Assembly (NCBI GenBank): GCA_050949255.1
Contig: JBMNFJ010000015.1
Coordinates: 30,646-94,645 of the forward strand
Direction of reading: 5' to 3'
Length of the DNA stretch: 64,000 nucleotides
Source: Caldicoprobacterales bacterium
GTDB taxonomy: Bacteria > Bacillota > Clostridia > Caldicoprobacterales > UBA3941
Shown here one piece after another: positions 797 through 64,000 of the stretch. The position numbers and the translations under genes were made by a program. The notes under the pieces are model-generated. The model was not told the origin of the DNA and made no database searches. It was given only the letters and a program-made list of their open reading frames with translations. Position 1 is the first letter of the stretch; each line of letters starts with the position of its first letter.

Positions 797-974
797 CAAT
801 AGCTATTGATCGTTAAGTACGTATATCTAATAGGAGGATGACTTGCTCAGGCAGCGATCAAGTTACATCGGAAAGCTGCCAGATGCTATCTATAGCTAAC
901 TGAAATAGCTGGAGTAGCAACGATCATCATAGCTATTGAACGCAACTTCATCATCTGCTTATCAATAGCTCATT
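797..974 (+). repeat. Rearranged/truncated copy of the modular intergenic element (type II modules)
   Basis: CAATAGCTATTGATCGTTAAGT..GGAGGATG..ACATCGGAAAGCTGCC..TATAGCTAACTGAAATAGC..ATAGCTATTGAACGC..CTTATCAATAGCTCATT aligns by eye with 41877-42060 and with the reverse complement of 28265-28528. Confidence 0.7.
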
Positions 975-11723: not shown

Positions 11724-11786
11724 TGGTCTTCCTTTCTATAGTGTAGTTGGGGGTGTTGTAGTGAAGAGTAATGCTTAATTGAATCC

Positions 11787-11968
11787 GTTGTACTTAACTT
11801 GTAATGGCTATTGAGCGCTCCTGACTTCGTAAGAGCAACGTCATCGCTGAAGTTTCAAAAAAATAATTATAATTTTGATATAGCAAACCTTAATGGTATA
11901 GTGTTTTTTGAAACTTCCCTACATCCAACACCGATTTGGAGAAAACTAAGGCTTATTCCATTTGAAGC
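11787..11968 (-). repeat. Truncated copy of the modular intergenic element between cheW and the MCP gene
   Basis: GTAATGGCTATTGAGCGC..GAAGTTTCAAAAAAA..TTTTTTGAAACTTCC..CGATTTGGAGAAAACTAAGGCTTATTCCATTTGAAGC aligns with 31902-32090 and with the reverse complement of 42190-42250. Confidence 0.8.
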
Positions 11969-11970
11969 AT

Positions 11971-12393
11971 CTAACCGAATATCCTATGGATATCCAAAAC
12001 GGCCACCAGCTCATCTTCCAATCGTACAACCTCTTTTATGTATTGTCCATATTCATGCTCCAGGTTCTCAGGCAGGGGCTGACGCCATTGGTCAGGTATA
12101 TCCAGGACGTCCCCCGGCCTGTCCACCACGAAGCCCAAATATTCATTTTCCGCATCATTATTCTTTAAAACTATACAGGTGGGCCCCTCAGGAATGTCGG
12201 ATTTCCTCTTATGGAGGATGCAGGCCACATCAAATATGGTTACGACCTGTCCCCTCATATTATATAATCCGACTATATGCTCCGGGGCACCGGGCACCTC
12301 TGTATATTTGATTTTTCTGTTAATCTCTTTTACCAGCCCGATATCTATCCCGAATAACTCGCCTTCCAGATAAAAGGTCAATATCCTTATCAT
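11971..12393 (-). CDS. cheW: Chemotaxis coupling protein CheW
   Basis: ILTFYLEGELFGIDIGLVKEI..VPGAPEHIVGLYNMRGQVVTIFD. ATG 12393 overlaps the cheA TGA; the track start is TTG 12396. Confidence 0.9.
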   Translation of the reverse strand: MIRILTFYLEGELFGIDIGLVKEINRKIKYTEVPGAPEHIVGLYNMRGQVVTIFDVACILHKRKSDIPEGPTCIVLKNNDAENEYLGFVVDRPGDVLDIPDQWRQPLPENLEHEYGQYIKEVVRLEDELVAVLDIHRIFG

Positions 12394-14609
12394 CAATACC
12401 GGCCCTCCTTCCCCGCGTTAGCTTCCATAAGGCTTCCTCCTCCATACTCTTCGGGAGCGGCCTTCTGTAATAGTTCATCCAGGTCCAGGGCCAGCACAAT
12501 CCTCCTGTTCCAGAATGTGGTACCCTTTATTCCATGGGCCTTTATGTCCTGCTCATTAAATTCCGAGGGCAGGACAACGGTGTCATGGATTCTGCCGATC
12601 AACAGCCCCATGGGCTGACCCGTCAGCTTTGGTATGATAACGTAGAGCTTTTTCCTATCATATTCCCTCCTGGAGATGGGCAGATATTCCTCCGGCCTTA
12701 TAAGCCTCAGGGTCCGTCCCCTGAATTCTATATATTCCTTATCCCCGACCAGTTCTATATCATCAGGCCTGATCTCCTCAACCCGGGAAACCTGGGATAG
12801 TTCAAGGCCCAGGGTCTCCGTTCCGGAACAGCTGAACAACAGCATGGTCTTTTCTCCCACTGCTGTCTTTTTGGTATCCTGCCTGCTTTCCGAGTCCTTG
12901 TCGGTCTCGGGAAACTTAAGCTCACCTTGAGCAGCCAATCCTTCAGCATCCAGTATCATGGCGATTTTACCATCGCCCAGTATGGTAACTCCGGAATAGC
13001 ACTTAAGATCCTTTAAGTGCCTGGGCAGGGGCTTTACCAGAATTTCCTCATCATCCCGTATGGCGTCTACTACCAAACCGAACCTTCTGTCCCCTATCTT
13101 CAGGACCAGGATCCTTATGACCTCCCGATGGTTTACCAGGCTCTCCCAGGATGAATCCTGTGACAGGCCCAACACCCGGGACAGGGACAGGATGGGCAGC
13201 AATCTATGGCGAAAGCGTAGTACAGGATAACCGTTCAAGAGCTCGATTGACCTATCCCTGTCTCCTGCTTTTACCCTTATCATCTCCTGCAGGTTTACCT
13301 GGGGCAGGGCAAAGTTATGACCTCCGGATTCAACGATAAGGGAGGATATTATGGCCAGGGTCATGGGCAGGTTCAGCTTAAAGGTAGTACCCCCTCCGGC
13401 CTGACTGTCTATTTCGATGCTTCCCCCCATCTTCTCTATGTTGGTCCGTACAACGTCCATGCCCACGCCTCTGCCGGACAGGTCGGTAACACTGCTGGCC
13501 GTTGAAAAGCCCGGCTGCATGATTTGTCCCAGAATCTCCTTCTCATCCATAAGGGATAATTCTTCCTGGGTTTTCAGGCCCTTTTGAAGTATTCTGGCTT
13601 TAAGGAGCTCCACATCTATCCCTGCTCCGTCGTCAGCCACCAGGATGGAGACATATCCCCCTTCCTGAAAGGCGCTGATCTTTACAAGTCCTTCCCTGCT
13701 CTTTCCTGCATCCTCCCGGTCCTGGGGCTTTTCAATACCATGATCTGCAGCATTGCGAATAAGGTGGGTCAGGGGGTCTGCCAGGGCTTCGATGATGGAT
13801 TTATCCAGCTCCACCTGGGTACCCTCCATTTCCAGCCTTATCTCCTTGCCCAATTGTCTTGACAGATCCCTTATTATCCTCGGAAATTTATTGAATACAT
13901 TGCCCAGGGGCTGCATTCTCGTCTGCATAACCCGTTCCTGCAGCTGGGTTGTTATGCTGTCTATGTTTTGAAGTATGGGGTCCAGGCCCTCCACGTGTTT
14001 CCTATGGCCTTCCAATCCCCGCAATAGTTGATTCCTGCCCAAAACCAGTTCGCTGGTCAGGTTCATAAGATCGTTGAGGAGCCCTATGGATACCCTTATG
14101 CTGTCCTCACCCGAGACAGCGGGGACGTTACCCTTAATGTCCTGGTTGCTGTCATGAGAAGGAACAGGGTTGTCATGAACAGTCCCGGCTGCCTCTGTTT
14201 TATCCCCTGGGGACTCTTCAGATAAAATTGCATCCAGGGTATGGATGTAATGCGAGATATCAATTTTGTGACTATTCACCGGATCTTTGACCATGGTGCC
14301 CAGACAATCGTTGGCCTCTAACAGAGCGTCGATGGAAAGGTCATCCAGTTGAACCTTTTCACTCCGAACCGCCCCAAAGAGGCTTTCCATGGAATGGGAC
14401 AGCTTAACTATATTGTCCAGTCCAAAAAAGCCCGCCGTTCCCTTTATACTATGTACGCTTCTAAAAAGTTGGTTTACCAGCTCCTGATCGTTAAGATTGC
14501 TGGCAAGTTTTATAAGATGTGATTCGATTTGCTCTATATGCGACCCGGCTTCATCAATAAAATCCTGTATAAACTCTTCATTCTTCAGCAACCAAATTAC
14601 CCCCGTCAC
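12393..14609 (-). CDS. cheA: Chemotaxis histidine kinase CheA (Hpt, dimerisation, HATPase, two tandem CheW-like domains)
   Basis: FRSVHSIKGTAGFFG (Hpt), NAADHGIE and DDGAGI..GRGVGMDVV (HATPase), then two CheW-like segments. Start could be TTG 14591 (GGGGGT RBS) rather than GTG 14609. Confidence 0.9.
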   Translation of the reverse strand: MTGVIWLLKNEEFIQDFIDEAGSHIEQIESHLIKLASNLNDQELVNQLFRSVHSIKGTAGFFGLDNIVKLSHSMESLFGAVRSEKVQLDDLSIDALLEANDCLGTMVKDPVNSHKIDISHYIHTLDAILSEESPGDKTEAAGTVHDNPVPSHDSNQDIKGNVPAVSGEDSIRVSIGLLNDLMNLTSELVLGRNQLLRGLEGHRKHVEGLDPILQNIDSITTQLQERVMQTRMQPLGNVFNKFPRIIRDLSRQLGKEIRLEMEGTQVELDKSIIEALADPLTHLIRNAADHGIEKPQDREDAGKSREGLVKISAFQEGGYVSILVADDGAGIDVELLKARILQKGLKTQEELSLMDEKEILGQIMQPGFSTASSVTDLSGRGVGMDVVRTNIEKMGGSIEIDSQAGGGTTFKLNLPMTLAIISSLIVESGGHNFALPQVNLQEMIRVKAGDRDRSIELLNGYPVLRFRHRLLPILSLSRVLGLSQDSSWESLVNHREVIRILVLKIGDRRFGLVVDAIRDDEEILVKPLPRHLKDLKCYSGVTILGDGKIAMILDAEGLAAQGELKFPETDKDSESRQDTKKTAVGEKTMLLFSCSGTETLGLELSQVSRVEEIRPDDIELVGDKEYIEFRGRTLRLIRPEEYLPISRREYDRKKLYVIIPKLTGQPMGLLIGRIHDTVVLPSEFNEQDIKAHGIKGTTFWNRRIVLALDLDELLQKAAPEEYGGGSLMEANAGKEGRY

Positions 14610-14928
14610 TAGCTATACACTTAATAGCCATTATACCGTATAGTCTTATATAATTTATATCGAATTTTAAAAGATTTTGTCATATAACTGTTTAATGATA
14701 ACCCTATTTCACAAAAGTCAAACATATATCAAAAGGCGATACTGGCATATCATATTACATCCCATGTCCAGGTGGTAAGCATGTGTCCGGATAAGAAAAG
14801 ATTATTGGGAAACCATAAGGCAAAAAGACCTGATAGTCATCCATATGGCGAATCACCAGCCAAACCCATACATAAAAAAGGCCATGTAAGTTTTCTGACA
14901 ATTGCAGCTTTTAATTTAAAAAATGTTA

Positions 14929-14957
14929 TTGTTTTAACTTACGTTTTGTGGTATAGT
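14929..14957 (+). promoter_or_regulatory. Candidate sigma-A promoter for the citrate synthase gene
   Basis: TTGTTT, 17 nt spacer, TATAGT, about 60 nt upstream of the start. Confidence 0.3.
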
Positions 14958-15018
14958 ATGGTTCATATATCTATACACATTGCAATGATACAATGTAAAC
15001 GAGAGGTGTTGTTTGATC

Positions 15019-16386
15019 ATGGGATTTAACGGGAACGATGTGATAATGAAAGTTTTGCCCGATGAGTTGCGAATACTTGCGGAATCCAATAATTTTATTC
15101 CTATAGAATTACACCAGGTTCACAATACAAAAAGGGGACTTAGAAACAGTGACGGCACGGGTGTGCTGGTTGGTTTAACCCAGATCGGGGATGTAATAGG
15201 CTACTACCGCGAGAACGGCAGGAAGGTACCTACGGAAGGCCGCCTACTCTACCGGGGCATCGATATACATGATATAGTTAAGGGTTTCCAGGCCGACAAG
15301 AGGTTCGGATTTGAGGAAACCGCCTATCTGCTTCTATTTGGCAAGCTGCCGGATGCCAAACAACTAAAGGAGTTTGAAGAGCTCCTGGGTGAATACAGGA
15401 CCTTGCCCGATGGTTTTGCCGAGGATATGATATTTAAGGCCCCAAGTATTGATATTATGAATAAGCTGGCCAGGAGCGTCCTTGCCTCCTATTCCTACGA
15501 TGAAAATCCGGACGATATCAGTGTTCGTAATGTGTTGAGGCAATGCATCGAATTGATAGCCAGATTTCCCGCCTTCGTAGCATGTGCCTATCAGGCCAAG
15601 TGTCATTACCATGATGGTGAGAGCCTCCACATCCATTATCCCCAGAAGGACCTCAGCACTGCAGAGAATATCCTGTATCTGGTAAGGCCTGATAATAAAT
15701 TCACGAGATTGGAAGCAGAGCTGCTGGATCTATCCCTGGTCCTTCACGCTGAGCATGGTGGCGGTAACAATTCCAGCTTTACCACTCATGTGGTTACCTC
15801 ATCGGGTACTGATACTTACTCCGCTATTGCAGCGGCTGTAGGTTCACTGAAGGGTCCCAAGCACGGCGGAGCCAACGCCAAGGTAATGGCCATGATGGAG
15901 GATATCAAGGCCAATGTATATGATTGGTCCAATGATAGGGAGGTAGCCAACTATATTCGGAAGATCCTGCGCAGAGAAGCCTTTGACGGCAGCGGTCTGG
16001 TCTACGGCCTGGGCCATGCGGTCTATACCCTTTCCGATCCCAGGGCCGTCCTCCTAAAGGAAAAGGCCGAGCAATTGGCTGAGGTAACGGGGATGGTAAA
16101 GGAATTTGAACTCTATAAATCCATAGAGAGGCTGGCTCCTGAAATCTTCTGTGAGGTAACAAAGAATACCAAAACCATTTCGGCCAATGTAGATTTCTAT
16201 TCCGGTTTTGTCTATAAGATGCTCAATATACCGGAGGATCTCTATACCCCCATCTTTGCAATAGCCAGGATGCCGGGTTGGGCTGCTCACAGAATAGAAG
16301 AGCTGGTCAGCGGGGGCAGGATTATCAGGCCTGCATATAAGAACGTCATGCCCTGCAATGACTACATTCCTCTCAAGGACAGATGA
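15019..16386 (+). CDS. Citrate synthase
   Basis: LVLHAEHGGGNNSSF..GPKHGGAN..GLGHAVY..VDFYSG citrate synthase signatures. ATG 15019 preferred over TTG 15013. Confidence 0.9.
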   Translation: MGFNGNDVIMKVLPDELRILAESNNFIPIELHQVHNTKRGLRNSDGTGVLVGLTQIGDVIGYYRENGRKVPTEGRLLYRGIDIHDIVKGFQADKRFGFEETAYLLLFGKLPDAKQLKEFEELLGEYRTLPDGFAEDMIFKAPSIDIMNKLARSVLASYSYDENPDDISVRNVLRQCIELIARFPAFVACAYQAKCHYHDGESLHIHYPQKDLSTAENILYLVRPDNKFTRLEAELLDLSLVLHAEHGGGNNSSFTTHVVTSSGTDTYSAIAAAVGSLKGPKHGGANAKVMAMMEDIKANVYDWSNDREVANYIRKILRREAFDGSGLVYGLGHAVYTLSDPRAVLLKEKAEQLAEVTGMVKEFELYKSIERLAPEIFCEVTKNTKTISANVDFYSGFVYKMLNIPEDLYTPIFAIARMPGWAAHRIEELVSGGRIIRPAYKNVMPCNDYIPLKDR

Positions 16387-16414
16387 ACCGATATAAAATA
16401 TTAAATCAACACGT

Positions 16415-16683
16415 TATGCTAGTTCATAATCTTAGGTAATGGCTATTGATAAGCGGATGACTTCATTGATTTGGTTAAGAAAACTTGGCTTGTGAAATGC
16501 AGAAAAGCCGTAGTTTTCTCCAAATCGATGTCGGAATAGTGAAGTTTCAAAAAATACATTATCATTAACGTTTGCTGACTAAAAACTATAATAGATTTTT
16601 TTGAAACTTCAACGATGCCGTAACTTTTATGATGGTAGTAAAGCGATCAATAGCCATTACCGGCATATGATTGACTAGCACAA
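16415..16683 (+). repeat. Full-length (~270 bp) modular intergenic element, reference copy
   Basis: Terminal inverted repeats TTATGCTAGTTCATAATCTTAGGTAATGGCTATTGA ... TCAATAGCCATTACCGGCATATGATTGACTAGCACAA. Internal hairpin A and palindromic module B (GAAGTTTCAAAAAAT...ATTTTTTGAAACTTC). Confidence 0.9.
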
Positions 16684-16710
16684 AAGTTTTAATCATATCA
16701 TTTCTACCAT

Positions 16711-16755
16711 AGGAAAGGACCTATCCACCGACAATGGATGGGTCCTTTCCTTTTC
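16711..16755 (+). terminator. Rho-independent terminator of the citrate synthase transcript, downstream of the repeat
   Basis: AGGAAAGGACCTATCCA-CCGACAA-TGGATGGGTCCTTTCCT followed by TTTT. Confidence 0.8.
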
Positions 16756-16922
16756 TGAATGATTTTCTTCCATAAACAAATAATATCCTTATGCTAACCT
16801 GGGGTTTTTTTACGTGGGTACTTCCCGTATTGATGAATAATCCCAGGTAATGTACTTTGCATTTAATCGGATCAAAGTATTCAATTGGACCAAAGAATTA
16901 CGCAAAAATCAGGAGGAAGTTT

Positions 16923-19808: not shown

Positions 19809-19981
19809 GCTATCAATCCTTATATCTTATTAAATATTTGCTTTTATTATTGGCTAGACATATAATTAGTATGATATCAAATAAATCGCGATACCGCAAT
19901 CAGGCTATATCCATGGGGATATCTTTTTATTTTACCCATGAAGCTTTTGTGTACTATATCACCACAAAATACTGTTTGACC

Positions 19982-20051
19982 GAAGTTTCAAAGACCTGAG
20001 TCATGACCTTGCTACATGAATCGGCGGGAAATGGGATTTTTTGAAACTTTT
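19982..20051. repeat. Solo copy of repeat module B (palindromic arms only)
   Basis: GAAGTTTCAAAG..N..GGGATTTTTTGAAACTTTTTC in the divergent ppa/DUF1846 intergenic region. Confidence 0.55.
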
Positions 20052-24089: not shown

Positions 24090-24181
24090 CAGGATAAGGC
24101 AGGCCTGCTACTCGATTAAGACGGCTTAAACTATTACCGGCTTACCTATCGTATGCCTACAATAGCTATCATAATAATAAA

Positions 24182-28231: not shown

Positions 28232-28264
28232 AGCCTTCCCCCTATAAATATGTAGTTTAAACTC

Positions 28265-28528
28265 TTGTGCCAGTCGTATAAATGCCGGTAATGACTGTTG
28301 AACGCTATTTCCATCATCCGCTTATCAATAGCTCATTACTTATAAATGGATGCTTCAGTCAGCTATAAGTTTTGCATTTACTTCTAGCGGGGAAGATGGA
28401 TTTGTGGAGGCAGCTTCCCGATGTAATTTGGAAGTCGCCGGAATAAACCATCCTCCTATACAAAGAAGCAACTTAGCTTTCGATGGCCATTACCTATCTT
28501 AACCATTAGATTAAAAAACTAACACAAC
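28265..28528 (-). repeat. Type II copy of the modular intergenic element in the nrdJ upstream region
   Basis: TTGTGCCAGTCGTATAAATGCCGGTAATGACTGTTGAACGC..CTTATCAATAGCTCATTAC..GGATTTGTGGAGGCAGCTTCCCGATGTAATTTGGAAG..CCATCCTCC..CGATGGCCATTACC. Confidence 0.85.
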
Positions 28529-28634
28529 AAGTGAATTAAGGTATTGTAGATCAGTCTGGCAGTGGTAAGTCAAAAATTTATGTATAAGTCATGAAATCCC
28601 CGCAACTGGGGCGATTCCGGAAAAATAAAAAAAT

Positions 28635-31867: not shown

Positions 31868-31901
31868 ATAATTGCCTCCTTTTTTTCTTTAAATTAACTC
31901 A

Positions 31902-32169
31902 TTGTGCTACTCAACCATATGGCGGTAATGGCTATTGACCGCTACCTAACATCGTAAGAGTAACTTTATCGTTGAAGTTTCAAAAAATTAATTATAGTTT
32001 TATGTAGCAAACGTTAATGGTAATGTATTTTTTGAAACTTCCCTCTTCCGACATTGATTTGGAGAAAACTAAGGCATTTCTGCATTCCATAAGCCAAGTT
32101 TTCTTGGCCAAATCAATGAAGTCATCCGCTTTTCAATAGCCAATTACCTAAGGTTGTGAATTAGCACAA
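31902..32169 (-). repeat. Second full-length copy of the modular intergenic element (inverted relative to 16415-16683)
   Basis: Its reverse complement aligns end to end with 16415-16683, with most positions identical. It lies between two co-directional genes, ending about 17 nt from the Gfo gene RBS. Confidence 0.9.
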
Positions 32170-32226
32170 GAGGTTTAATTTATCCCTATATTAAGTTAAA
32201 CTTAAAAAATTTCTGTTACTCATGAA

Positions 32227-37435: not shown

Positions 37436-37500
37436 GTAGCAATTAAATAAGGTGACACGGATATCGATGAAGTCATCCACTTATCAGTAGCAATTACTAT
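37436..37500 (-). repeat. Short degenerate fragment of the intergenic element (one end plus start of hairpin A)
   Basis: Reverse complement AGTAATTGCTACTGATAAGTGGATGACTTCATCGAT resembles GGTAATGGCTATTGATAAGCGGATGACTTCATTGAT. Confidence 0.5.
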
Positions 37501-37731
37501 TACACCAACTATCCTTTGGTGTCATAGTCAAGACAGCAATCCAGCTTATTGCTCCTTCATACATTCTATTCCCGTGCAAAATCCTAATCAACCGTAGGTT
37601 TCAAATAGAATAGGCTATATAATTTTTTGAAGAGTGTATCATAAAACAGTATACCATGGGGACATCTGAAAAATAAGTGAAGATATATTGATAAACATTT
37701 GGCTGATTATTTTTTGAAAGAAAAAATTTTG

Positions 37732-41740: not shown

Positions 41741-41876
41741 ATTGTCTATGAATTCTCTACCCTGGATACTAACATTATACCCAGGTCTTCTAAATCATTA
41801 TCATCATTTATTCCTATTGTCAACAACCCATTATTTCAAATCATTATTCCAATCTTATGGCAAACAGTAATACGTA

Positions 41877-42298
41877 GGTAATGGCTATTGATCGCTAAGT
41901 TACGTTATTATATGGGAGGATGGTTTGTATCTGCTGCTTCCAAATTACATCGGGAAGCTGCCTTAATAGAATCTACCTCCACAAATCCATCCTCCTTAAT
42001 AACATTACTAATATATCAACTTGTATAGCATATAGCTAACTGAGATAGTGCTTGTAATGGAAATTGGCTATTGATAAGCGAATGACTTCATTGATTTGGG
42101 TAAGAAAACTTGGCTTATGGAATGCAGAAAAGCCGTAGCTTTAAGCAGGACGCTTAAAGCAGCTTCCTTCCGGCAGGACGCCGGATTGGAAGCGGTAGGC
42201 TTTTCAAATGGAATAAGCCTTAGTTTTCTCCAAATCGATGTCGGAAGGAGCGATCAATAGCTATTGCCATAACATAGTTAAGCAATAAGCTAATACAC
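41877..42298 (+). repeat. Compound (~420 bp) copy of the intergenic element: type II modules + hairpin A carrying an extra two-hairpin insert
   Basis: GGTAATGGCTATTGATCGCTAAGT..GGAGGATGG..CCATCCTCC..TATAGCTAACTGA..GGCTATTGATAAGCGAATGACTTCATTGATTTGG..[insert 42139-42223]..CCAAATCGATGTCGGAAGGAGCGATCAATAGCTATTGCC. Confidence 0.85.
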
Positions 42299-42337
42299 CA
42301 GCATAAAATTGCCTTATTCTATTGAACCGTTCAACTG

Positions 42338-43843
42338 TTATTCAGCTGCCGGCCTTTTCTTTGCCTTATCTGCAGCTCCGGCATTTTCGGTAGCTGCCTG
42401 GCGATCCTGTGCCATCTCTTCAACGGTCTTGGTCTTGAGCCTGGCGGCACCCTTGTAGCCTTCCCTGGTTGGGATCAGATTGCCTTTGGCCAGCCTTTCC
42501 TTAGCTTTTGCTATAGCCTCTCCATATTGGGGCAGCCACTGTTCCTGGGCTACCAGCATCTCATCCACCATTTGCCAAATCTCCGGAGGATTGCATACAG
42601 CCCCGACCAAGGGATCCATCATCATGGCCTGGCGCAACAGGGTGTCATCGGCATGGACTGCTGCTTCCACAGCCAGCCTTTGTACCGATATGCTGGCATT
42701 GCATATGGCAGCGCATCCCAGGGGCAGGTCCCCTATCTTTGGAATACTGATTCCGTTATAGTCTACATACCCCGGCACTTCAACGATGGCATCATCGGGC
42801 AGGTTGGTTATGGTTCCGTTGTTTACCACATTAAAATGCCCTCTATAGACTCGCCCTGTTTCCAGCCCCTCTACTATATAGGAGCCATGTTCGCCGCTTC
42901 TGTCATTGGGATCAAATTTGCGGGGCTCTTCCTTTAACCAGTTGGGAAAATCGGTCTCAAACCAATTGCGCCCTTCGGTACAAACCCTCAGATATCCTCC
43001 GGTTTCCCCGTTTATCCAGGTGCCCAAATCAATCCAGTCCATGATCTCGTCGGGACGTTTCCTGTACCAGGGCAGGTATTCGCTCAGATGGCCGTTGGAT
43101 TCCGTGCTGTAGTAGCCAAAACGCCGCAGTATATCTATGCGCACCTTTTCGGTTTTGCTGTAAACGGGATGCTCCTCGAAGGCCTTTAAAAGCTTACCCG
43201 TCATGTCCTCTCCCTTATGCTTTACCTGTATATACCATGTTTGATGGTTGATACCGGCGCAGATAATATCCACCTCGTCCTGCTCCAGTCCAAGAACCTC
43301 TGCGATTTGCTGGTGTCCGCCCTGAACACCGTGACACAGCCCGATGGTATTTACTCCGCCATACTTGTTGCATGCCCAGGTGATCATGGCATTGGGATTT
43401 GCATAGTTAAGAAGCAGGCAGCCGGGCTCTGCAACCTCCCTGATATCCTTGCAAAACTCCAACATAACCGGGATACCCCGCTGACCGTACATGATACCAC
43501 CTGCACACAGGGTATCGCCTACACATTGGTCCACACCATATTTAAGGGGTATATCCACATCCAACTGAAAGGCTTCAAGGCCACCTATCCGAACTACGTT
43601 GAATACATACCTGGCATCCCTTAGCGCCTCCCGGCGATCGGTAGTGGCCATGATCTTGATGTCAAGGCCATTGGCGTCGATATCCCTTTGGCAGAGCTGG
43701 GTGACCATGGACAGATTGCGTTCGTTTATATCCGTAAATGCCACCTCAATATTGTGGAACTCCGGCACCGAAAGCAGATCCTTTAAAAGTCCCCTGGTAA
43801 ACCCTATACTTCCGGCCCCAATAAATGCAACTTTAAAAGACAT
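42338..43843 (-). CDS. Glycoside hydrolase family 4 (NAD/Mn-dependent alpha-galactosidase/alpha-glucosidase type) with a Lys/Ala-rich C-terminal tail
   Basis: FKVAFIGAGSIGFT..NYANP..GLCHG GH4 signatures. GGAGG RBS before ATG 43843. Confidence 0.88.
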   Translation of the reverse strand: MSFKVAFIGAGSIGFTRGLLKDLLSVPEFHNIEVAFTDINERNLSMVTQLCQRDIDANGLDIKIMATTDRREALRDARYVFNVVRIGGLEAFQLDVDIPLKYGVDQCVGDTLCAGGIMYGQRGIPVMLEFCKDIREVAEPGCLLLNYANPNAMITWACNKYGGVNTIGLCHGVQGGHQQIAEVLGLEQDEVDIICAGINHQTWYIQVKHKGEDMTGKLLKAFEEHPVYSKTEKVRIDILRRFGYYSTESNGHLSEYLPWYRKRPDEIMDWIDLGTWINGETGGYLRVCTEGRNWFETDFPNWLKEEPRKFDPNDRSGEHGSYIVEGLETGRVYRGHFNVVNNGTITNLPDDAIVEVPGYVDYNGISIPKIGDLPLGCAAICNASISVQRLAVEAAVHADDTLLRQAMMMDPLVGAVCNPPEIWQMVDEMLVAQEQWLPQYGEAIAKAKERLAKGNLIPTREGYKGAARLKTKTVEEMAQDRQAATENAGAADKAKKRPAAE

Positions 43844-45520: not shown

Positions 45521-45878
45521 CTATCACTCCCCTATTTAAATATCTGAATCAATAGTTATGGCTGACCAAACACAATTTGTCCAACTAAGACAAGGGATTG
45601 GTTTAATAATATATAACACCCAACCGGTCCTTAAAACCACAATAAGATTATATATTGGAGCTTAACCAAATGCATACATCCTATTCCAGTATCACCATTC
45701 GAATCTGAAGAGGACTTACTACATCTTTCACTATAGATAAAAGAGTACAAAATATCAAAATATAATAATATAATCAACATGCTTTTTTTGATAGAGTGTA
45801 ATTAGTATTGGATTATTCCAGCATGTATTGACTATTTTATCTGAAATAAAATTACACTCTGTCCAAGGAGGAATAGGT

Positions 45879-47831: not shown

Positions 47832-51205
<3,374 letters not shown>

Positions 51206-53475: not shown

Positions 53476-54834
53476 CTACTTGGCAGGGTTCTCGCAGACC
53501 CCCACGAACAGGAGGGCTCCGTTTTGTGACGTGATGCCGTAGATAAAGGGTCGGTCCAGAATCATTTCGGCCCGGTCCTCCGGGAGAGCAGCTCCACAGT
53601 AGTCTATCTGGGTAAAGGCGGAAGCCTCAACCCCGTCCTCATCTATGGATATATGGGTATCCTGCCTTATATCGGTTATAAAGGCCATGTGATCTGCGAT
53701 ACCTGAAAAATCAGCATCCCTCTCAAAAGCCGAGTTAACACCAAGGTCCCTGATCACGTCTAGAAGCTTAAGGCTGGTACCGAATTTGAACTTGGGTACC
53801 TTCCATACCACCTCTCCGTAAAACTCCTCCCCGCCTTCGAAGGCTTCCCGCATCTGCTCCGGCGATGAAAGGAGGTCATAGGGGGTAATGCCCTCGTCGG
53901 GCAGTATAAAGATCATCCTTCCTGCATTCTTAAGCCCCAAAGATGACCTGGTAAAACCGTCCCCACGTGCAAAGCCTGCGGAGCCGAAGGTCTGATTCAT
54001 AAATTCGGTCTTTACCTCATCACCGTTTGAAAGATGGAAAACATCAAAGGCGGTCTTATCCTTATTAAACCTGTCAATCCATTGGTCATAGAAGTAGATG
54101 GTATTGATGATGCTGAGGATCTGATCCCTGTCAAATTCAAAGGATGGATTCAAGGTGCCATTGGTATTGTCGAAGACCCATTTGGTCATGGCCTTCTCGG
54201 TGGTATCTGCATCGGCAAAGTCCACACTATGGGAGGATGCATAGAAATTCTCCGCAGCGTTTTTCACAAAACTCTTCTTAAACTCGATGGGCTCTCCATT
54301 CATGTCATCATCAAGCCACAGGGAATTGGCTATCTTCAATTTTCCAATTTCGTTATCGGTATATAACAGGCGGTATAGATTCCCGCTTTGGATGGACAGG
54401 GTTTCACCGTCGGCCACCCCCAACAGGGATAAGAGCTCCCTTTGGGTGTCCCCCTCCGCGCCTGAGGCAGCCAGGGCCAGGGCATAGTAGAGGGATAAGG
54501 GGGAGTAGTTTATATTATCGCCCCTGTTTTCAAAAATCCGGACAGAGGTTTTATATGCAAAATCCTTTATAGCCGCCTCAAAGGCCTCATCCACGGGGTT
54601 TTCATCCCGGACCTCCCATGCCCCGTCTGTATCCTCAAAAGCAAGGGCTTTGGGGTAAATCACATCCATGATCGGCTCTGTGCCGCCACCAGAACCTCTT
54701 CCTGAAAAAATTACCTGCCATATAGAGGTAAGCTGACCTATGCCCAGCACCAGTACCAGGCAGGCGGCAACTATGCCCCAAATCCTCCATGGTTTGATTC
54801 TCTTTTTCAGCTTGACTGTTCGTGCTTCATCCAC
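53476..54834 (-). CDS. Membrane-anchored serpin-family protein
   Basis: N-terminal TM WRIWGIVAACLVLVLGIGQL, then serpin features (NYSPLSLYYALALAASGAEGDTQREL; hinge-like DEDGVEASAFT; ILDRPFIYGI). GTG 54834 as drawn; see the frameshift finding. Confidence 0.8.
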   Translation of the reverse strand: MDEARTVKLKKRIKPWRIWGIVAACLVLVLGIGQLTSIWQVIFSGRGSGGGTEPIMDVIYPKALAFEDTDGAWEVRDENPVDEAFEAAIKDFAYKTSVRIFENRGDNINYSPLSLYYALALAASGAEGDTQRELLSLLGVADGETLSIQSGNLYRLLYTDNEIGKLKIANSLWLDDDMNGEPIEFKKSFVKNAAENFYASSHSVDFADADTTEKAMTKWVFDNTNGTLNPSFEFDRDQILSIINTIYFYDQWIDRFNKDKTAFDVFHLSNGDEVKTEFMNQTFGSAGFARGDGFTRSSLGLKNAGRMIFILPDEGITPYDLLSSPEQMREAFEGGEEFYGEVVWKVPKFKFGTSLKLLDVIRDLGVNSAFERDADFSGIADHMAFITDIRQDTHISIDEDGVEASAFTQIDYCGAALPEDRAEMILDRPFIYGITSQNGALLFVGVCENPAK

Positions 54835-55599: not shown

Positions 55600-57747
55600 T
55601 TAGATTGTATTAAAGGACAGGATAGCCTTAAACAGGTCTCCATCCACCTTTATTTCAAAGTCCCCACCGCAGGATTGGGTGAAGTTTTGAGCAATAGCCA
55701 GGCCCAATCCGGAACCTTCGCTGGTGCGCGCCTTGTCTCCCCTAAAGAAGCGCTCGGTTATCTCCTCTTCACTGAAATTCATCTCGTAATTTGCAGTGTT
55801 CTTTATTTCTACAAGGGCTCTGCCTTCTTCAACGGTCAGGTCCACATACACCCTGGTCCCTATCAGGGAATATTTCAGGGCATTTGAAAACAGGTTTGCA
55901 AATACCCGGTAGAGCTTGTTGCCATCGCTTGTTATAAACACCGGCTCATCCGGAAGGTTTAGCCTTAATCCAAGCCCGGACTCCTGAATCCTGTCCTCCA
56001 GATCGGCCAGGGTCTGCTGTATGAGCTTCACCAGATCCAGGGTTTTCATGTCAAATTCCATCTGCCCGCTGGCTACCTTGGACAGGTCGAAGAGGTCCTG
56101 GATGAGGAACTTAAGTCTATCGGACTTTTGTGCCAGTATCCCTATATAATCCCTTACATGCTCCGGCAATCCGCCTTCCTTTGATAACAGGTCCACATAG
56201 CTGATGATGGAGGTAAGGGGGGTCTTCAGGTCATGGGATATGTTGGTAATAAGCTCCACCTTCATCCTCTCGCTCTTAATGCTGTTTTCCACAGCCGTAG
56301 CCATACCCTCCTGAATCGTGTTCAGATTGTCTTCCAAAACCTTCAGGTCCGAACCGGGGCTAAGCTCCAATTTGGTCCCTATATCACCCTTCCTTATGCG
56401 CTCCGTCTGTTCTATTATCCTGTCTATGTCCACCAGATTATTGGCAAAGCGCCGGGTATATAGATAGAATAGGAAAATACCAACACAGACCAGAATAAGC
56501 GCCATAACAAAGAATACTATTTCACTTTCAGCGGCAGCAAGGAGAACAAGCAGAATGGAGAAGAAGATAAACAGGGCCTCAAGTATTATCATTATGCGTA
56601 TTCTTATGAGTTGGGCCTTGTGAAAGGGCCGCACCCCCTCCAAGTGCCAATACCATTTCACCAGTTTCCATGTCATGTTTTTCGTTAGGATGTATTCACG
56701 GTTTGCGCGAATATCTATAAATGCAAAATATGCCAGCCACAGGAGCACACTTGCAACATAGAAGAGCTTTAAAAACCCTGCCCAATAGTGTCCCTCAACA
56801 AGATACATTGAGATTATCCATACCACAAGAATGAACAGGATTTTAAACTCCAGTAACACCTTACCCAGAACTCCTCCTATGGTCCTTTCCAATTCCCTTC
56901 CTAGATTTCGATTCAGGAGGGAAAATATAAAGAGTCCTAGTTCGGCGGTAAAGGCCAGCAGCAGGGCTAAGTACAAATACTTCTGCTTAGTCAGATTCTT
57001 TTCCATGGAATATAGGATGCTGTACTCATATGGAACTGTTACCAGGTCCTTTTTTACCGCTAAAAGTATTTGGCATCCCCGGATGTCGGGAACATCCTGG
57101 TGGATTCCTTTTACATCCCAATCTCCTCCGATATAGTTGTAGAATTGTGTACTCCAGTATCCGTTATTGCTTTCGTATATATCCAGGGGTTTTCCGGCAT
57201 TTTGTACCAGAAATCTTTGCCCGTCATAGTGGATATAAAAGTCATAGCCCTTTGGCAGGGTCAGGGGTTGGTCATTGGTAATCCCAAGGTCGGTAGCGGA
57301 GTTGGTCAGAGAAACATCAGTCTTTGGATTTGCGGCGTAGTAGATTAGATTCTGGCCTTCAGCCCTGAATGACCTAAGCTGCCAGTCCACATAGTCGCGA
57401 AAGTCCCTCTCCGCCTGAATCCTTTCCATGGCTTTACGCTCATTCTCATCCATATTCTCATCATAGTCATAGGTATAATATGAATCGCCGACTTTGGCTA
57501 AATCCCCTTCATAGTCGTAATCCCAGTCATGAGTTATATACTCGGCCAGGAAGTGAAACTTTTCCCCCAAAAAATCCTTGAACTGCTGGGTATCCCTATA
57601 ATCCAGACTTATAATATCCGTACCCAGATAGTTGACCTGATACCTTCCCCTGGAGGCCATGGTCAGGCAGAAAACCACTATGTATATACCGATAAAGAGA
57701 TACAGCCATATCCTAAAGGGTCTAGATCTTTTCAATCCGATATCCAA
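55600..57747 (-). CDS. Sensor histidine kinase with a large extracytoplasmic N-terminal domain and a multi-helix membrane block
   Basis: ISHDLKTPLTSI H-box and a GSGLGLAIA G2 box. About 230 aa follow the first TM before further helices. Overlaps the response regulator stop by 26 nt. Confidence 0.88.
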   Translation of the reverse strand: MDIGLKRSRPFRIWLYLFIGIYIVVFCLTMASRGRYQVNYLGTDIISLDYRDTQQFKDFLGEKFHFLAEYITHDWDYDYEGDLAKVGDSYYTYDYDENMDENERKAMERIQAERDFRDYVDWQLRSFRAEGQNLIYYAANPKTDVSLTNSATDLGITNDQPLTLPKGYDFYIHYDGQRFLVQNAGKPLDIYESNNGYWSTQFYNYIGGDWDVKGIHQDVPDIRGCQILLAVKKDLVTVPYEYSILYSMEKNLTKQKYLYLALLLAFTAELGLFIFSLLNRNLGRELERTIGGVLGKVLLEFKILFILVVWIISMYLVEGHYWAGFLKLFYVASVLLWLAYFAFIDIRANREYILTKNMTWKLVKWYWHLEGVRPFHKAQLIRIRIMIILEALFIFFSILLVLLAAAESEIVFFVMALILVCVGIFLFYLYTRRFANNLVDIDRIIEQTERIRKGDIGTKLELSPGSDLKVLEDNLNTIQEGMATAVENSIKSERMKVELITNISHDLKTPLTSIISYVDLLSKEGGLPEHVRDYIGILAQKSDRLKFLIQDLFDLSKVASGQMEFDMKTLDLVKLIQQTLADLEDRIQESGLGLRLNLPDEPVFITSDGNKLYRVFANLFSNALKYSLIGTRVYVDLTVEEGRALVEIKNTANYEMNFSEEEITERFFRGDKARTSEGSGLGLAIAQNFTQSCGGDFEIKVDGDLFKAILSFNTI

Positions 57748-58420
57748 TTCCCCACACCACCTTCAAGTACTCGGGTTCCCTAGGGTTTATCTCTATCTTT
57801 TCCCTGATCCTGCGGATATGTACCATGACGGTATTCTCCACGCTGTAGGGTGTTTCATTCCAGACTCTTTCGTAGATCTCTTCCGCAGAGAATATGCGCC
57901 CCAAATTCTTCATAAGCAGCTCTACGATCTTAGTCTCCGTTGCCGTTAGCCTGACGGGAACCCCATCAGCCGTGAGACAGCGGGTATCGGTATCAAAGGC
58001 CAGCCTCCCGGTCCTTATGATGTTGCTGCCGTTGGAGTTTACATCTCCCAGAGTCATATACCTTCGGATCTGGGATTTTACCCTGGCCATAAGCTCCATA
58101 GGGTTAAAAGGCTTGGTAACGTAGTCATCCGCGCCCATGGACAAGCCCAGGATCTTATCCGAGTCCTCGGATTTTGCAGATAGGATAATTATAGGTATAT
58201 TTTTGTCCTGACGTATCTTCATGGTAGCCGATAGACCATCCAGTCTGGGCATCATTATGTCCAGTAAAATCAAATGAATGTCCTGGCTGCTTATGGCATC
58301 CAGGGCCATTAAACCATCATAGGCCACTATAACCCTGTAACCTTCGTTTTGGAGGTTGATGCTAATGGCTCTGACAATCTCCCTGTCATCATCTACAACC
58401 AATACACACGGCTTTTCCAT
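57722..58420 (-). CDS. OmpR/PhoB-family response regulator
   Basis: VLVVDDD..LILLDIMMPRLDG..KPF REC domain plus winged-helix LTATETKIVELL..VWGIGY. Confidence 0.9.
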   Translation of the reverse strand: MEKPCVLVVDDDREIVRAISINLQNEGYRVIVAYDGLMALDAISSQDIHLILLDIMMPRLDGLSATMKIRQDKNIPIIILSAKSEDSDKILGLSMGADDYVTKPFNPMELMARVKSQIRRYMTLGDVNSNGSNIIRTGRLAFDTDTRCLTADGVPVRLTATETKIVELLMKNLGRIFSAEEIYERVWNETPYSVENTVMVHIRRIREKIEINPREPEYLKVVWGIGYRIEKI

Positions 58421-59031
58421 ACGTCTCACCTTCCCTAATAACTAAACAATAGAGTAAAACACTGAACCCTAGGGATATTATAGCTGAATATCCTTACGAA
58501 AAGATAGCCCTGTTTCTTACGGAATTCTTAATCTGTCTTAGGTAGGGGCCAAAAGGCGGCTGGAGCAGAATCCTGGTATACGGATCATGACAGGGCTACC
58601 TGGGCGGGTACCGGTACCGGTGTTCCATTTACAGCAGCTTATCTTATGTGAAAAGAAGATCCCATTGCAGATTTAGTGGAAGATATGGCTGCTGAGGAAA
58701 AAGCCTGAGCCAACATATGAGCATTTGATTGATCTAGCGGATGATCCGGATGTAATAGATCCGCTGCGATGGCTGAAAGAAAGAGAATTATCCACTTCCA
58801 ACGTTCCCGTAAGATTTTAATAAGCTTTATACCGGAAGGATAGTACGAAACATTATTAGCTGATAGGCCTGCTGATGCAGGCCTATTTAACACATTATTT
58901 TACCAGTTAAATATTACAATATATCAAACAAAATTTTTCCATTCTTTAATAAAATTAGTATTATCAAATCGGTCTATAGTGCATAGACTAAAAACATGAG
59001 GTCGATCCAATATAGACCAAGGAGGCTTGTC

Positions 59032-59394
59032 ATGAAAGAATATAAACTTACGGAAAGTGAAGAAAAGTTCGCAAATATCATTTGGTTGAATGAACCTATT
59101 GCTTCAGGTGATCTGGTAAAGCTATCTGAAAAGGAAATGAACTGGAAGAAGTCTACCACTTATACTGTCCTGAAGAAACTATGCGAAAAAGGCATTTTCA
59201 AAAATGAAAATGCTGTTGTTTCATCTTTAATCACTAAGAATGAATACTATGCAAAGCAAAGCATCCTCTTCGTTGAAGATACTTTTGGAGGGTCTTTACC
59301 TAGATTCTTAACAGCATTTATAGGAGAAAAAAAATTAAGTAAAAAGCAAGCAGAAGAGTTGAAAAGATTGATTGATAAGCACAAGGAGGTTTAG
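59032..59394 (+). CDS. BlaI/MecI/CopY-family transcriptional repressor
   Basis: LTESEEKFANIIW..TTYTVLKKLCEKGI winged-helix pattern. AAGGAGG RBS before ATG 59032. Confidence 0.88.
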   Translation: MKEYKLTESEEKFANIIWLNEPIASGDLVKLSEKEMNWKKSTTYTVLKKLCEKGIFKNENAVVSSLITKNEYYAKQSILFVEDTFGGSLPRFLTAFIGEKKLSKKQAEELKRLIDKHKEV

Positions 59395-59396
59395 TA

Positions 59397-61199
59397 ATGA
59401 GTATCTTATTCATTTCCGTTTTGAATATGAGCATTACGGCAAGCTATGTAATCCTATTTGTAATAGTTATCAGATTGATGCTTAAAAAAGCTCCAAAGGT
59501 CATCTCTTATGCCTTATGGAGTGTGGCTGCTTTTCGTCTTCTAATTCCATTCTCATTTAAAAGTGTCTTTAGTCTTATGCCACGTAAAACGAATGCTGTT
59601 CCACTCCCCAATGGGGTTATCTATCAGCAAAGTTCGCAGATTGATAATGGTATAAGAGTACTCGACTCTTTCACAAGTGAGTCACTTCATGCACAACATA
59701 CCAGTGCCAGTTTAAGTCCCTTGCAGATTTTTATAGAATATGGGGCATACATCTGGATGTTAGGCATAATAGTATTGTTTGTTTACAGTTTCGTATCTAT
59801 CTTGGTCTTAAGAAGACGGCTTAAGGCTGCACAATTAATAGAAAGGAACATTTTTGAAGCCAGGAATTTGCAAACACCATTTGTGCTTGGACTAATAAGA
59901 CCTAAGATATATTTGCCGGTTGGACTGAAGGATGATGAAAGGGATTATATTTTGCTGCATGAACAGATCCATATTCGCCGAAAAGACCATATCATTAAGA
60001 TGTTAGCTTTCTTTGTATTGTGTTTCCATTGGTTTAATCCTCTTGTATGGGTTGCGTATTTAATTATGAGCATGGATATGGAGCTTTCATGTGATGAAAG
60101 AGTACTGAAAGAAATGGATGAAAAAATTAAAAAGCCTTATGCTAACTCATTGTTATCCCTTGCTGCCGGAAGACATATTCTAAACGGAAGTCCAATTGCA
60201 TTTAGCGAGAGCAAGGTAAAGTGGAGAATTAAAAATGTGTTGAATTATAAGAAGCCTGCTTTTTGGGTTACTCTGGTCTCCGTATTATTTGCCCTTGCAA
60301 TAGGAATAGGACTGTTAGCAAACCCACAGGATAAGGGTTACAATGAGATCATTAATAGCGATAATGGCCCTGGGGAAAGCATCCAGTTAGCAACAACTCA
60401 AGGCGACAGTCATGAGTTAACGGGAAGGGTTGCTAAGGATAAGGGGAATATAATTGAAAGTTTTTCGGAAATAGATAAGTATATTAAAGATTATACTTTT
60501 GATGTTTCATATGAGGAAGATTTGGAATTGGGTCAACGAGTTTATAGTTTTCATGGCAAATATGACTTAAATGGAGATGGCGAAGCAGATAGCATAAATG
60601 CAGTATTAATAACGGATAATGAGGACGGTTCCTATATTGAGGTTAATGGTATGAAAGTGGAGTTAAACCTCTACAATCCAACAGGTGCGGTAAAAATTAT
60701 TGATTTGGATAGCGAGGATGGTTATACCGAAGTTGCTATTTTTGACGATGGGGCAAGTGGAGATCCTGCGTTTACATTTATTCGCTATGATGGTACAAAG
60801 CTATATACCTTAGGAACAATAGATCGGCATGCATTAATGGATGGAAAGGGAAAATTCATATCAAGGTTTCATTTGGCCAATAACTTCAAACCTCAATTCT
60901 TTTCAGCATTGGGAGAATTTAAGAACAATGAATACCTTATAACGAATTATGATGTGGAACAATATATAGGGGAGACTTATGAAGTCTATGGAACTGGCTT
61001 TTTTGTACCCTTAGACTTTTATCCAGAAGACTATTTTGAACATGTTGTATGGGACTCAGAAAATCTGAGAGAATTTAAAGCAACGAAAATAAAGCTACTA
61101 GGTATTCATATAAGCCCGGATAATCCGACTCTAAACTGGTTTTATGTTGAACTGCCGGATGGTGAGAAAGGACTCTTGTATTTCTGGATAGGAGATTGA
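59397..61199 (+). CDS. BlaR1-like M56 signal-transducing metallopeptidase with a non-PBP C-terminal domain
   Basis: Multi-TM N-terminus with LLHEQIHIRRKDH (HExxH). The C-terminal ~300 aa lack SxxK/KTG and contain DLNGDGEAD-type Asp-rich loops. Confidence 0.85.
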   Translation: MSILFISVLNMSITASYVILFVIVIRLMLKKAPKVISYALWSVAAFRLLIPFSFKSVFSLMPRKTNAVPLPNGVIYQQSSQIDNGIRVLDSFTSESLHAQHTSASLSPLQIFIEYGAYIWMLGIIVLFVYSFVSILVLRRRLKAAQLIERNIFEARNLQTPFVLGLIRPKIYLPVGLKDDERDYILLHEQIHIRRKDHIIKMLAFFVLCFHWFNPLVWVAYLIMSMDMELSCDERVLKEMDEKIKKPYANSLLSLAAGRHILNGSPIAFSESKVKWRIKNVLNYKKPAFWVTLVSVLFALAIGIGLLANPQDKGYNEIINSDNGPGESIQLATTQGDSHELTGRVAKDKGNIIESFSEIDKYIKDYTFDVSYEEDLELGQRVYSFHGKYDLNGDGEADSINAVLITDNEDGSYIEVNGMKVELNLYNPTGAVKIIDLDSEDGYTEVAIFDDGASGDPAFTFIRYDGTKLYTLGTIDRHALMDGKGKFISRFHLANNFKPQFFSALGEFKNNEYLITNYDVEQYIGETYEVYGTGFFVPLDFYPEDYFEHVVWDSENLREFKATKIKLLGIHISPDNPTLNWFYVELPDGEKGLLYFWIGD

Positions 61200-61249
61200 A
61201 TGATGCCTATATGAGTGAAAAGATAGCAAGAAACATTTTTAGAGATCAT

Positions 61250-61273
61250 GACCCGCTAAGCGGGTCTTTTTTT
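61250..61273 (+). terminator. Rho-independent terminator
   Basis: GACCCGC-TAA-GCGGGTC followed by TTTTTTT. Confidence 0.9.
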
Positions 61274-61565
61274 GAGCCTATGAAGAAATGGGAGGCCCCA
61301 TGGTTCACCAGCTGATGAAGGAGCAACCATGGAGCAAATCAAAGCAGCCGGGGCTGAATCCTGGTACACAGATTAAAAATAACATTAATCTTACCAAATA
61401 TGAGCAAATTCCAACTATTCATATACCAAACCGGTAAATAGAATATAGATATCAAATGTTAAACATATTATCCCGAGGATTTGGAGAAGTACTATAACTC
61501 AGACTAGTCGCGTGAAATACTCGAAAAACACCAATAACAAGAAAGAATAAAAGGAGGATTATTCT

Positions 61566-62513: not shown

Positions 62514-62516
62514 GCA

Positions 62517-63875: not shown

Positions 63876-63922
63876 GTGGTGTATTAGTAAGTTTGGAATA
63901 GTTTTTCATCAGGAGAATTTGT

Positions 63923-63960
63923 AAGAGCGCAACGGGCTGTATTGAGCCCATTGCGCTCTT
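63923..63960 (+). terminator. Long hairpin after the last gene
   Basis: AAGAGCGCAACGGGCT-GTATTG-AGCCCATTGCGCTCTT; no clear T tract. Confidence 0.55.
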
Positions 63961-64000
63961 TAGGTGTAATGAAATAGATAGTTGGTCAATATAAGTTAAT

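Follow-up and report, generated by a model that had tools for sequence, protein, structure and literature searches.

The DNA stretch analysed here (the window) comprises 64 kb of contig JBMNFJ010000015.1 from an uncultured Clostridia bacterium of the order Caldicoprobacterales. Its genes are ordinary and include a chemotaxis operon, citrate synthase, PBP5, ribonucleotide reductase and sugar enzymes, and between them lie copies of a modular repeat, for which the copy downstream of citrate synthase serves as reference. A preliminary description, made from the letters of the window, had presented this copy at 16415-16683 as an element bounded by inverted repeats, and the letters of the segment are as described there. 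We find that the repeat is a new family resembling miniature inverted-repeat transposable elements (MITEs), and that its cargo is a known orphan RNA motif.

The copies in the window were counted by repeat finding, self-BLAST and a profile hidden Markov model (HMM) built from four full-length copies. This census yielded eight solid repeat loci and two weak ones (14621-14635 and 19981-20051), where ten or more loci had been proposed; two of the claimed solo ends, at about 24140-24175 and about 45548-45585, gave zero HMM matches even at E<=20 and were dropped. The third claimed solo end (14623-14638) is retained as a weak site at 14621-14635 (HMM E=5.9), and a mini copy occupies the orthologous position in the sister species L121. 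What had been taken for a copy at 19982-20051 is a lone hairpin resembling module B at 19981-20051 (HMM E=0.25), found in L121 and not in L123. The second full-length copy, previously placed at 31902-32169, aligns as its reverse complement from end to end over 31882-32195 with 85-87% identity, and the truncated or composite copies that begin at 797, 11771, 28243, 37463, 41836 and 51023 in the list below were recovered, all but the first with adjusted limits. The copies range from minis of about 110 nt, which consist of a left end and a right end and nothing else, to composites of about 450 bp; none has an open reading frame (ORF) inside, and both orientations occur.

The core sequence shared by the copies is clearly enriched. 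With up to three mismatches, the 15-nt core GGTAATGGCTATTGA occurs at 15 sites in the window against 2.63 expected, a number reached by none of 100 shuffles, and the over-representation of the 8-mer GCTATTGA claimed earlier is evident in 15 exact sites against 2.4 expected. The same 8-mer had been said to lie always between genes. This is true of the copies, all of which are intergenic, but 3 of the 15 exact 8-mers (10384, 45952 and 48952) fall inside ORFs, as many as chance would give, and the other 12 are within repeat loci. The features are as follows.

16410-16687, plus strand: full-length reference element, 278 bp, between 9-nt flanking direct repeats
16401-16409, no strand: left 9-nt flank TTAAATCAA, putative target-site duplication, with a 7/9 match to 16688-16696 that includes the unusual TCA variant
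16688-16696, no strand: right 9-nt flank TTTAATCAT of the reference copy
16410-16449, plus strand: left inverted repeat of the reference copy (core 16435-16449), from the end alignment and the HMM
16450-16463, plus strand: TAAGCGGATGACTT motif of the reference copy
16464-16530, plus strand: hairpin A, read from the series of long, intermediate and short forms as the TwoAYGGAY P1 stem with its core deleted
16541-16610, plus strand: module B hairpin (GAAGTTTCAAAAAAT ... ATTTTTTTGAAACTTC), with TTAACG-16-TATAAT in the loop
16647-16687, plus strand: right inverted repeat of the reference copy
31898-32173, minus strand: second full-length copy, 276 bp, with flanking 9-mers at 31889-31897 and 32174-32182 (7/9 match)
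11771-11966, minus strand: truncated copy with a degenerate right inverted repeat, module B and the right arm of hairpin A
41836-42290, plus strand: composite of a degenerate inverted repeat, a type 2 module (about 41892-42050), a left core (42054-42074), a complete TwoAYGGAY and a right core (42247-42268)
42086-42243, plus strand: complete TwoAYGGAY RNA (RF01731; 55.4 bits), with long P1, P2 and two AGGAC-loop hairpins in the predicted fold
28243-28540, minus strand: composite of a right inverted repeat (28252-28307), a core-loop-core mini hairpin (28287-28341), a type 2 module and a degenerate left-type inverted repeat (about 28476-28540)
797-974, plus strand: partial type 2 module (798-880) and core-loop-core mini hairpin (930-974)
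37463-37513, minus strand: fragment with left core and GGATGA motif
51023-51205, plus strand: type 2 module fragment ending in GCTGTTGATAAGCGAAATCAA, 76.7% identical to 41969-42082 (E=1e-17)
14621-14635, minus strand: weak core remnant with three mismatches (HMM E=5.9) and a mini hairpin at the same site in L121
19981-20051, plus strand: lone module B-like hairpin (HMM E=0.25), internally deleted in L121 and missing in L123

The type 2 module (41892-42050, 28342-28475, 798-930 and 51086-51166) is a second repeated cargo, in which GGGAGGATGGTTTGT ... ACAAATCCATCCTCC pair at long range around an inner hairpin; no Rfam match to it was found at E<=1.

An alignment of 19 ends from 10 copies shows that the terminal inverted repeats, which had been estimated at 35-40 bp, are real but have a length nearer 45-50 bp, and that they are of two differentiated types, the left end being CCTCTTGTGCTAGTTCATAATCTTAGGTAATGAGCTATTGA-TAAGCGGATGA and the right end ..GCGGTCAATAGCCATTACCGGCATATGATTGACTAGCACAACGCG. 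Just outside them lies an AT-rich 9-mer with the consensus TTAANTTAA, which at first resembles a part of the inverted repeat because it is nearly palindromic. When the 9-mers of the 14 complete copies were compared as direct repeats, the mean match was 6.14/9 within a copy and 5.66/9 between copies (permutation p=0.020), a match of at least 7/9 was present in 7 of the 14 copies against 26% of between-copy pairs (p=0.019), and the middle base was identical in 8 of them (p=0.03). Treated as inverted repeats, the same 14 copies gave no within-copy excess (p=0.90). Clear flank pairs are seen at L112 (TTGATTTAT / TTGATTTAG), L140 (TTATATTAA / TTAAATTAA) and L132 (TTAGCTTAA / TTAACTTAA), and the flanks of the reference copy have the unusual TCA in common. 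From these comparisons, the flanking 9-mers are probably a 9-bp AT-rich target-site duplication. Reading them in this way sets the element limits at 16410-16687 for the reference copy, whose conserved ends overrun the limits first given by about 5 nt at either end, and at 31898-32173 for the second full copy.

Two other assignments of the target were considered. A TA duplication, with TAANTTAAC termini belonging to the inverted repeat, is disfavoured, since the 9-mers act as direct and not as inverted repeats. An 8-bp duplication, TAAAGGAT, surrounds the L132 mini copy; other copies do not have it and it probably reflects local history. In the genome DASRNX01 (L123 9528-9607), a right end and a left end stand head to head with one common 9-mer, GGGCACAAAGCG-TTAAATTAG-CCTGTTGTGC, an arrangement that may represent either a pair of neighbouring elements or an end-to-end junction.

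Although the sequence had not been recognised as a described family in the preliminary description, hairpin A together with the insert at 42140-42200 corresponds to the Rfam RNA TwoAYGGAY. That assessment did hold for the rest: the inverted-repeat shell, module B and the type 2 module have no match in Rfam, in PLSDB plasmids or in INPHARED phages, and appear undescribed in these libraries. The TwoAYGGAY match was obtained by scanning 41800-42340 with laxer filters, which placed RF01731 at 42086-42243 on the plus strand over model positions 1-168, with 55.4 bits against a gathering cut-off of 43 (E=1e-8). A second match, of 46.1 bits (cut-off 43), is found in the sister species at L121 6476-6633 on the minus strand. 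In the window copy two hairpins are closed by long P1 and P2 stems and their loops are AGGAC, without a Y before GG. The whole-window Rfam scan at the gathering threshold had returned zero matches, though this copy scores 12 bits above the TwoAYGGAY cut-off, and a 67-kb multi-locus scan likewise missed known TwoAYGGAY copies that small windows recovered; the match is lost in long inputs because of the speed filters of the Rfam scan. The strand opposite the TwoAYGGAY core (window 42142-42205, minus; L121 6515-6577, plus) gives a sub-threshold match to Bacillaceae-1 RNA (RF01690), of 22-25 bits against a cut-off of 35.

TwoAYGGAY was found in Clostridia, gamma-proteobacteria and the human gut, with 216 representatives, and its P1 is often very large, up to 24 bp (Weinberg et al. 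2010, PMC2864571). The original alignment contains seven entries from Psychromonas ingrahamii with repeated flanks (PMC2864571), and none of the longer core strings of our repeat occurs in that alignment. TwoAYGGAY has been proposed as a CsrA-binding small RNA (sRNA) of Clostridia, and Bacillaceae-1 RNA is the other family proposed as a CsrA binder (Gardner and Eldai, PMC4333381). In a bioRxiv preprint of September 2026 (10.64898/2026.09.22.753630) the term twoAYGGAY appears 52 times, along with 14 mentions of 'reverse transcriptase' and 24 of cDNA; we use these term counts and make no claim on its content.

Most copies have lost part of this RNA. Within the reference copy (16350-16760) no RF01731 match was found at E<=1 and only the P1 stem is left. 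Set side by side, the forms make up a deletion series of 163, 135 and 78 nt: the long form has P1, P2 and both AGGAC-loop hairpins; the 135-nt form has one hairpin deleted between repeated GCAGGACGC; and the 78-nt form, which is hairpin A of the reference copy, has the whole core deleted between direct repeats AAGCCNTAG. The mini copies represent further deletions, for example between two ACTTCA repeats. As judged from these alignments, hairpin A is the P1 stem of TwoAYGGAY with its core deleted, and both GGA-loop hairpins are gone from most copies.

Outside the window, the repeat proved to be widely dispersed. More than 20 anaerobic-digester and biogas metagenomes contain contigs that agree almost completely with the window (94-98% of sampled words), and the proteins of the window are also encoded on a closed 2.6-Mb record. 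An exact 19-mer spanning the left core and GCGGATGA was searched among 185,579 species genomes and occurs on 17 contigs of the metagenome-assembled genome (MAG) JAAYRX01 and on 2 of DASRNX01, with two archaeal matches at chance level; the match of these JAAYRX01 and DASRNX01 contigs to the window is confined to the repeats and their flanks differ. Nine metagenome loci were detected with a 20-mer taken from the outer part of the left inverted repeat. By read depth, the left core with its adjacent motif stands at about 50-65 times the genome in four metagenomes and at about 48 times in a later fifth measurement, the right arm of hairpin A at about 20-70 times and the TwoAYGGAY core at about 13-30 times. 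The left core with the GGATGA motif is the most abundant segment; many read joints reveal other module combinations. Because of the roughly 50-fold depth, the 17 JAAYRX01 contigs and the nine metagenome loci, we conclude that the repeat is dispersed in dozens of copies per genome and is not a local duplication.

Four related digester genomes or assemblies carry the repeat; it occurs in the window species, the sister species (L121, L132), JAAYRX01 and DASRNX01. No copies were found in the relatives L124, L128, L129, L131 and L133 (80-89% protein identity) over the 9-21 kb examined in each. The repeat is restricted to a small clade within the digester Clostridia. Between genomes, the left halves of the copies are 83-94% identical while the proteins of those genomes are only 76-89% identical, and the identity of copies within a genome is no higher than between genomes.

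The sites occupied in the window were compared with their orthologs. At the 3' side of citrate synthase, where the copy of the window is complete and in plus orientation, L121 (identity 95% for proteins and about 88% for DNA) has a truncated copy in the opposite orientation with the same start point, and neither DASRNX01 (87%) nor JAWLDD01 (84%) has a copy. The MCP-CheW spacer measures 247 nt in the window, 643 nt in L121, where the mix of modules is another and module B is missing precisely between GCTATTGAGCGCT and ACATCC, and 60 nt in DASRNX01, where it is empty; the L121 chemotaxis operon (L121 1400-3781) also has one MCP gene more than that of the window. Between AP_endonuc and GFO, which form an operon as their spacer is only 11-14 nt in the three relatives L128, L129 and L133, the window has 359 nt with the full copy 31898-32173, the sister species 174 nt with a mini copy in opposite orientation, and DASRNX01 216 nt with a degenerate remnant. 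Overall, empty orthologous sites were observed in L123, L124, L128, L129, L131 and L133, and in sister species the same sites are occupied by other forms or orientations.

The reference copy was predicted to be part of the citrate synthase 3' untranslated region (UTR), and metatranscriptome contigs that begin in the coding sequence do continue into the element, breaking off where the assembly collapses on the repeat. RNA coverage resumes past the copy, reaches the terminator and then falls to zero, which places this copy within the 3' UTR. Words of the element are several-fold to tens-fold deeper in RNA than the flanking genes, a depth that fits copy number multiplied by read-through and does not imply independent transcription. 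The right inverted repeat contains an outward-facing TTGACT 17 nt from the element edge; promoter-like matches in the element, including the TTAACG-16-TATAAT of the module B loop, are no commoner than in shuffles. Both strands of the reference copy fold far better than shuffled sequences (z = -7.1 and -8.5), and owing to G-U pairs the sense fold is more stable than the antisense fold in 10 out of 10 copies, which are related and not ten independent observations. Descent from an RNA gene that contains G-U pairs would give such an advantage. A first count of about 19 out of 24 had suggested that the copies are oriented with transcription; once the rule was tightened and the loci counted were independent, 16 sense copies stood against 11 antisense (p=0.44), and the bias was rejected.

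We also searched for genes that could move the repeat. The absence of a transposase or RAYT gene from the window, already stated in the preliminary description, was upheld for the ORFs checked: Pfam searches of about 28 flanking or large ORFs gave housekeeping families only, and neither the window nor this set of ORFs yielded a transposase, RAYT, TnpA(Y1), integrase or reverse transcriptase. No multi-copy ORF was found in about 0.3 Mb of loci. The repeat itself has no blastn match in plasmid or phage collections and no match in viral contigs.

Taking into consideration the inverted repeats, the 9-nt direct repeats, the lack of an ORF, the dozens of intergenic copies, the deletion derivatives and the empty orthologous sites, the likeness to MITEs noted at the outset is supported; the analogy with REP/BIME elements drawn at the same time is poor, the ends being long inverted repeats with target duplication and not short palindromes. 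We consider it probable that the copies are DNA transposons of a single, non-autonomous family. A transposase of the DDE type, provided in trans, would bind the differentiated ends and would insert the elements, by a 9-bp staggered cut, into AT-rich, roughly palindromic 9-bp targets (approximately TTAANTTAA), leaving 9-nt direct repeats. The progenitor would have carried a complete TwoAYGGAY RNA gene and module B between its ends. The long, intermediate, short and mini forms may then have arisen where short direct repeats (AAGCCNTAG, GCAGGACGC and ACTTCA) slipped or recombined, and the composites where copies recombined, or inserted into one another, at the core they share. Copies in UTRs and operon spacers would be co-transcribed passively with their neighbours, as is seen at one locus. 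The trans-acting DDE transposase, its family and the current activity of the elements are what we infer in this account.

Several observations weigh against the transposon interpretation. An autonomous partner with matching ends was not found in the 64-kb window, in the approximately 0.3 Mb of element-bearing or syntenic loci or among the roughly 28 ORFs. The direct-repeat signal reaches only p of about 0.02 in 14 copies whose registers were anchored by hand, and a TA duplication may still apply; the pairs of filled and empty sites are all too diverged to read the target directly, which makes the evidence for duplication statistical. Alternatively, a function for the host could account for how well the copies are conserved between species. 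Finally, strain-level presence/absence variation was not seen at two copies in 8 DNA metagenomes, and with no strain-level empty sites there, these give no sign of recent mobility. In one small run, X1, a single contig of 4180 nt from the region 11948-16397 connects 14889 with 11948 in reversed order, as though that strain had an inversion of 11948-14888; at the joint there is a short inverted match, GAGAAAACTAA / TAAGTTTTCT, which is related to the arm of hairpin A.

Host selection offers a different explanation for the same features. The copies would be RNA elements whose GGA loops (the two AGGAC of TwoAYGGAY and AAGCGGAUGA beside the left core) are putative CsrA sites, working as a sponge sRNA or in cis control, and transposition would merely disperse them. 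The proposal that TwoAYGGAY is a CsrA-binding sRNA of Clostridia (PMC4333381) is in keeping with this, as are the greater stability of the sense strand in all ten folded copies, the abundance and co-transcription of the element RNA, a conservation between species far above that of neutral DNA, and the predominance of the left core with its GGATGA motif over all other segments. However, the ten folded copies are kin, most copies have lost both GGA-loop hairpins, the orthologous sites of relatives are empty, and orientation shows no bias, two of the three complete TwoAYGGAY copies even being antisense to the flanking genes. On this evidence we find the host-selection explanation unlikely. The local origin suggested by the clustering in the window, with the copies as non-mobile relics of duplications confined to this region, has next to no probability: the clustering is all that favours it, and against it stand at least 17 contigs of another MAG and 9 metagenome loci with unrelated flanks, and a depth of about 50 times the genome. 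The preliminary description had itself named confinement of the copies to the window, as segmental duplicates, as the outcome that would overturn its interpretation, and this was not the case, as copies lie on contigs of other genomes with unrelated flanks.

Movement by other machinery is also hard to reconcile with the ends. If TwoAYGGAY RNA were copied by a reverse transcriptase, a possibility suggested by the term counts of the 2026 preprint, the repeat would spread from RNA to cDNA in the manner of short interspersed nuclear elements (SINEs); long inverted repeats with a flanking repeat of fixed length are instead hallmarks of DNA transposons, the copies show neither 5'-truncation gradients nor A-tails, the window and the scanned neighbouring ORFs gave no reverse transcriptase, and most copies are without the TwoAYGGAY core, all of which renders this route highly improbable. 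The hairpin-rich, modular core-loop-core arrangement, and ends that resemble GTTRRRY / RYYYAAC, would also be compatible with single-stranded DNA hairpins moved by an HUH enzyme (REP/BIME with RAYT, or PATE of the IS200/IS605 type) or with integron attC-like recombination sites. Such systems lack target duplication and have short subterminal palindromes, whereas here the inverted repeats measure about 45-50 bp; the window, the loci and the ORFs scanned yielded no RAYT, TnpA(Y1) or integrase; and the copies are flanked by syntenic housekeeping genes in place of cassettes. The chances of this last explanation are slimmer still, and its integron variant is ruled out by gene context, the flanking housekeeping genes being present also in relatives that lack the repeat.

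The repeat shares traits with several known systems. Like the TwoAYGGAY of Rfam, the copy at 42086-42243 matches the full 168-position model with a very long P1 and two GGA-loop hairpins, and the motif is multi-copy in another genome too (7 in Psychromonas ingrahamii); it differs in having AGGAC pentaloops instead of AYGGAY, in being nested in an inverted-repeat shell with target duplication, and in that most copies, including the reference, are reduced to P1 and fail the model. Correia/NEMIS of Neisseria and RUP of Streptococcus pneumoniae are classic bacterial MITEs with a TA duplication. Our repeat resembles them in size (about 100-300 bp), terminal inverted repeats, target duplication, lack of an ORF, a copy number of dozens or more, intergenic and UTR sites, co-transcribed long hairpins and subtypes formed by internal deletion. 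It has no sequence similarity to them, shows a probable 9-bp AT-rich duplication in place of TA, has much longer inverted repeats (about 45-50 bp) with distinct left and right types, carries a catalogued structured RNA and comes without a cognate insertion sequence in what we searched. The BOX element of pneumococcus, boxA-boxB(n)-boxC, has neither long inverted repeats nor a 9-bp duplication; it is likewise modular, with inner modules variable in number and kind, intergenic and transcribed, but without sequence similarity to our repeat, in which long inverted repeats and a probable 9-bp duplication are present and a repeated core separates the modules. REPs are palindromes of 20-40 nt tied to a RAYT gene, without inverted repeats or target duplication. 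They too are dispersed intergenic hairpins, at times inside operons, and the long inverted repeats, the 9-nt direct repeats and the lack of a RAYT among the ORFs scanned set the present family apart. DDE transposition of the IS4/IS10 type creates a 9-bp duplication at a symmetric target, and a 9-nt duplication with a roughly palindromic target consensus would be a likeness of mechanism only, as no transposase was found here and the ends are not recognisably those of IS4.

Elsewhere in the window, a 452-aa bacterial serpin (PF00079, E=2e-64) is encoded at 53476-54834 on the minus strand; the gene of a BlaR1-type M56 peptidase (59397-61199) lies a few kb away. Over 56000-64000, G+C falls from about 0.47 to 0.42, GC skew passes from negative to +0.20 at 60-64 kb and gene orientation turns to the plus strand, a shift that may mark a strand-switch point or foreign DNA.

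These results provide a named and bounded repeat family for an uncultured, globally recurring lineage of digester Clostridia. Its copies break up short-read MAGs, many matches lying at contig ends, and inflate intergenic regions, as in the operon spacer that grows from 11-14 nt to 359 nt. The results also caution that a whole-window Rfam scan at the gathering threshold can miss an above-threshold match. An Rfam motif of unknown function is tied here to the context of a mobile element, with its decay from 163 to 135 to 78 nt documented, which is relevant to the interpretation of TwoAYGGAY matches and to the CsrA and reverse-transcriptase hypotheses. A far-reaching extension, which we put forward as a speculation with rather poor odds, is that TwoAYGGAY, for 16 years an orphan motif, is the native cargo of a transposable element and not a free-standing sRNA gene, that its giant P1 and its multi-copy occurrence elsewhere (7 in Psychromonas ingrahamii) have the same cause, and that the element spreads GGA-loop hairpins into UTRs and operon spacers as sites either for CsrA or for the reverse transcriptase to which the 2026 preprint seems to connect this RNA. 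If this were true, transposition would rewire post-transcriptional control genome-wide.

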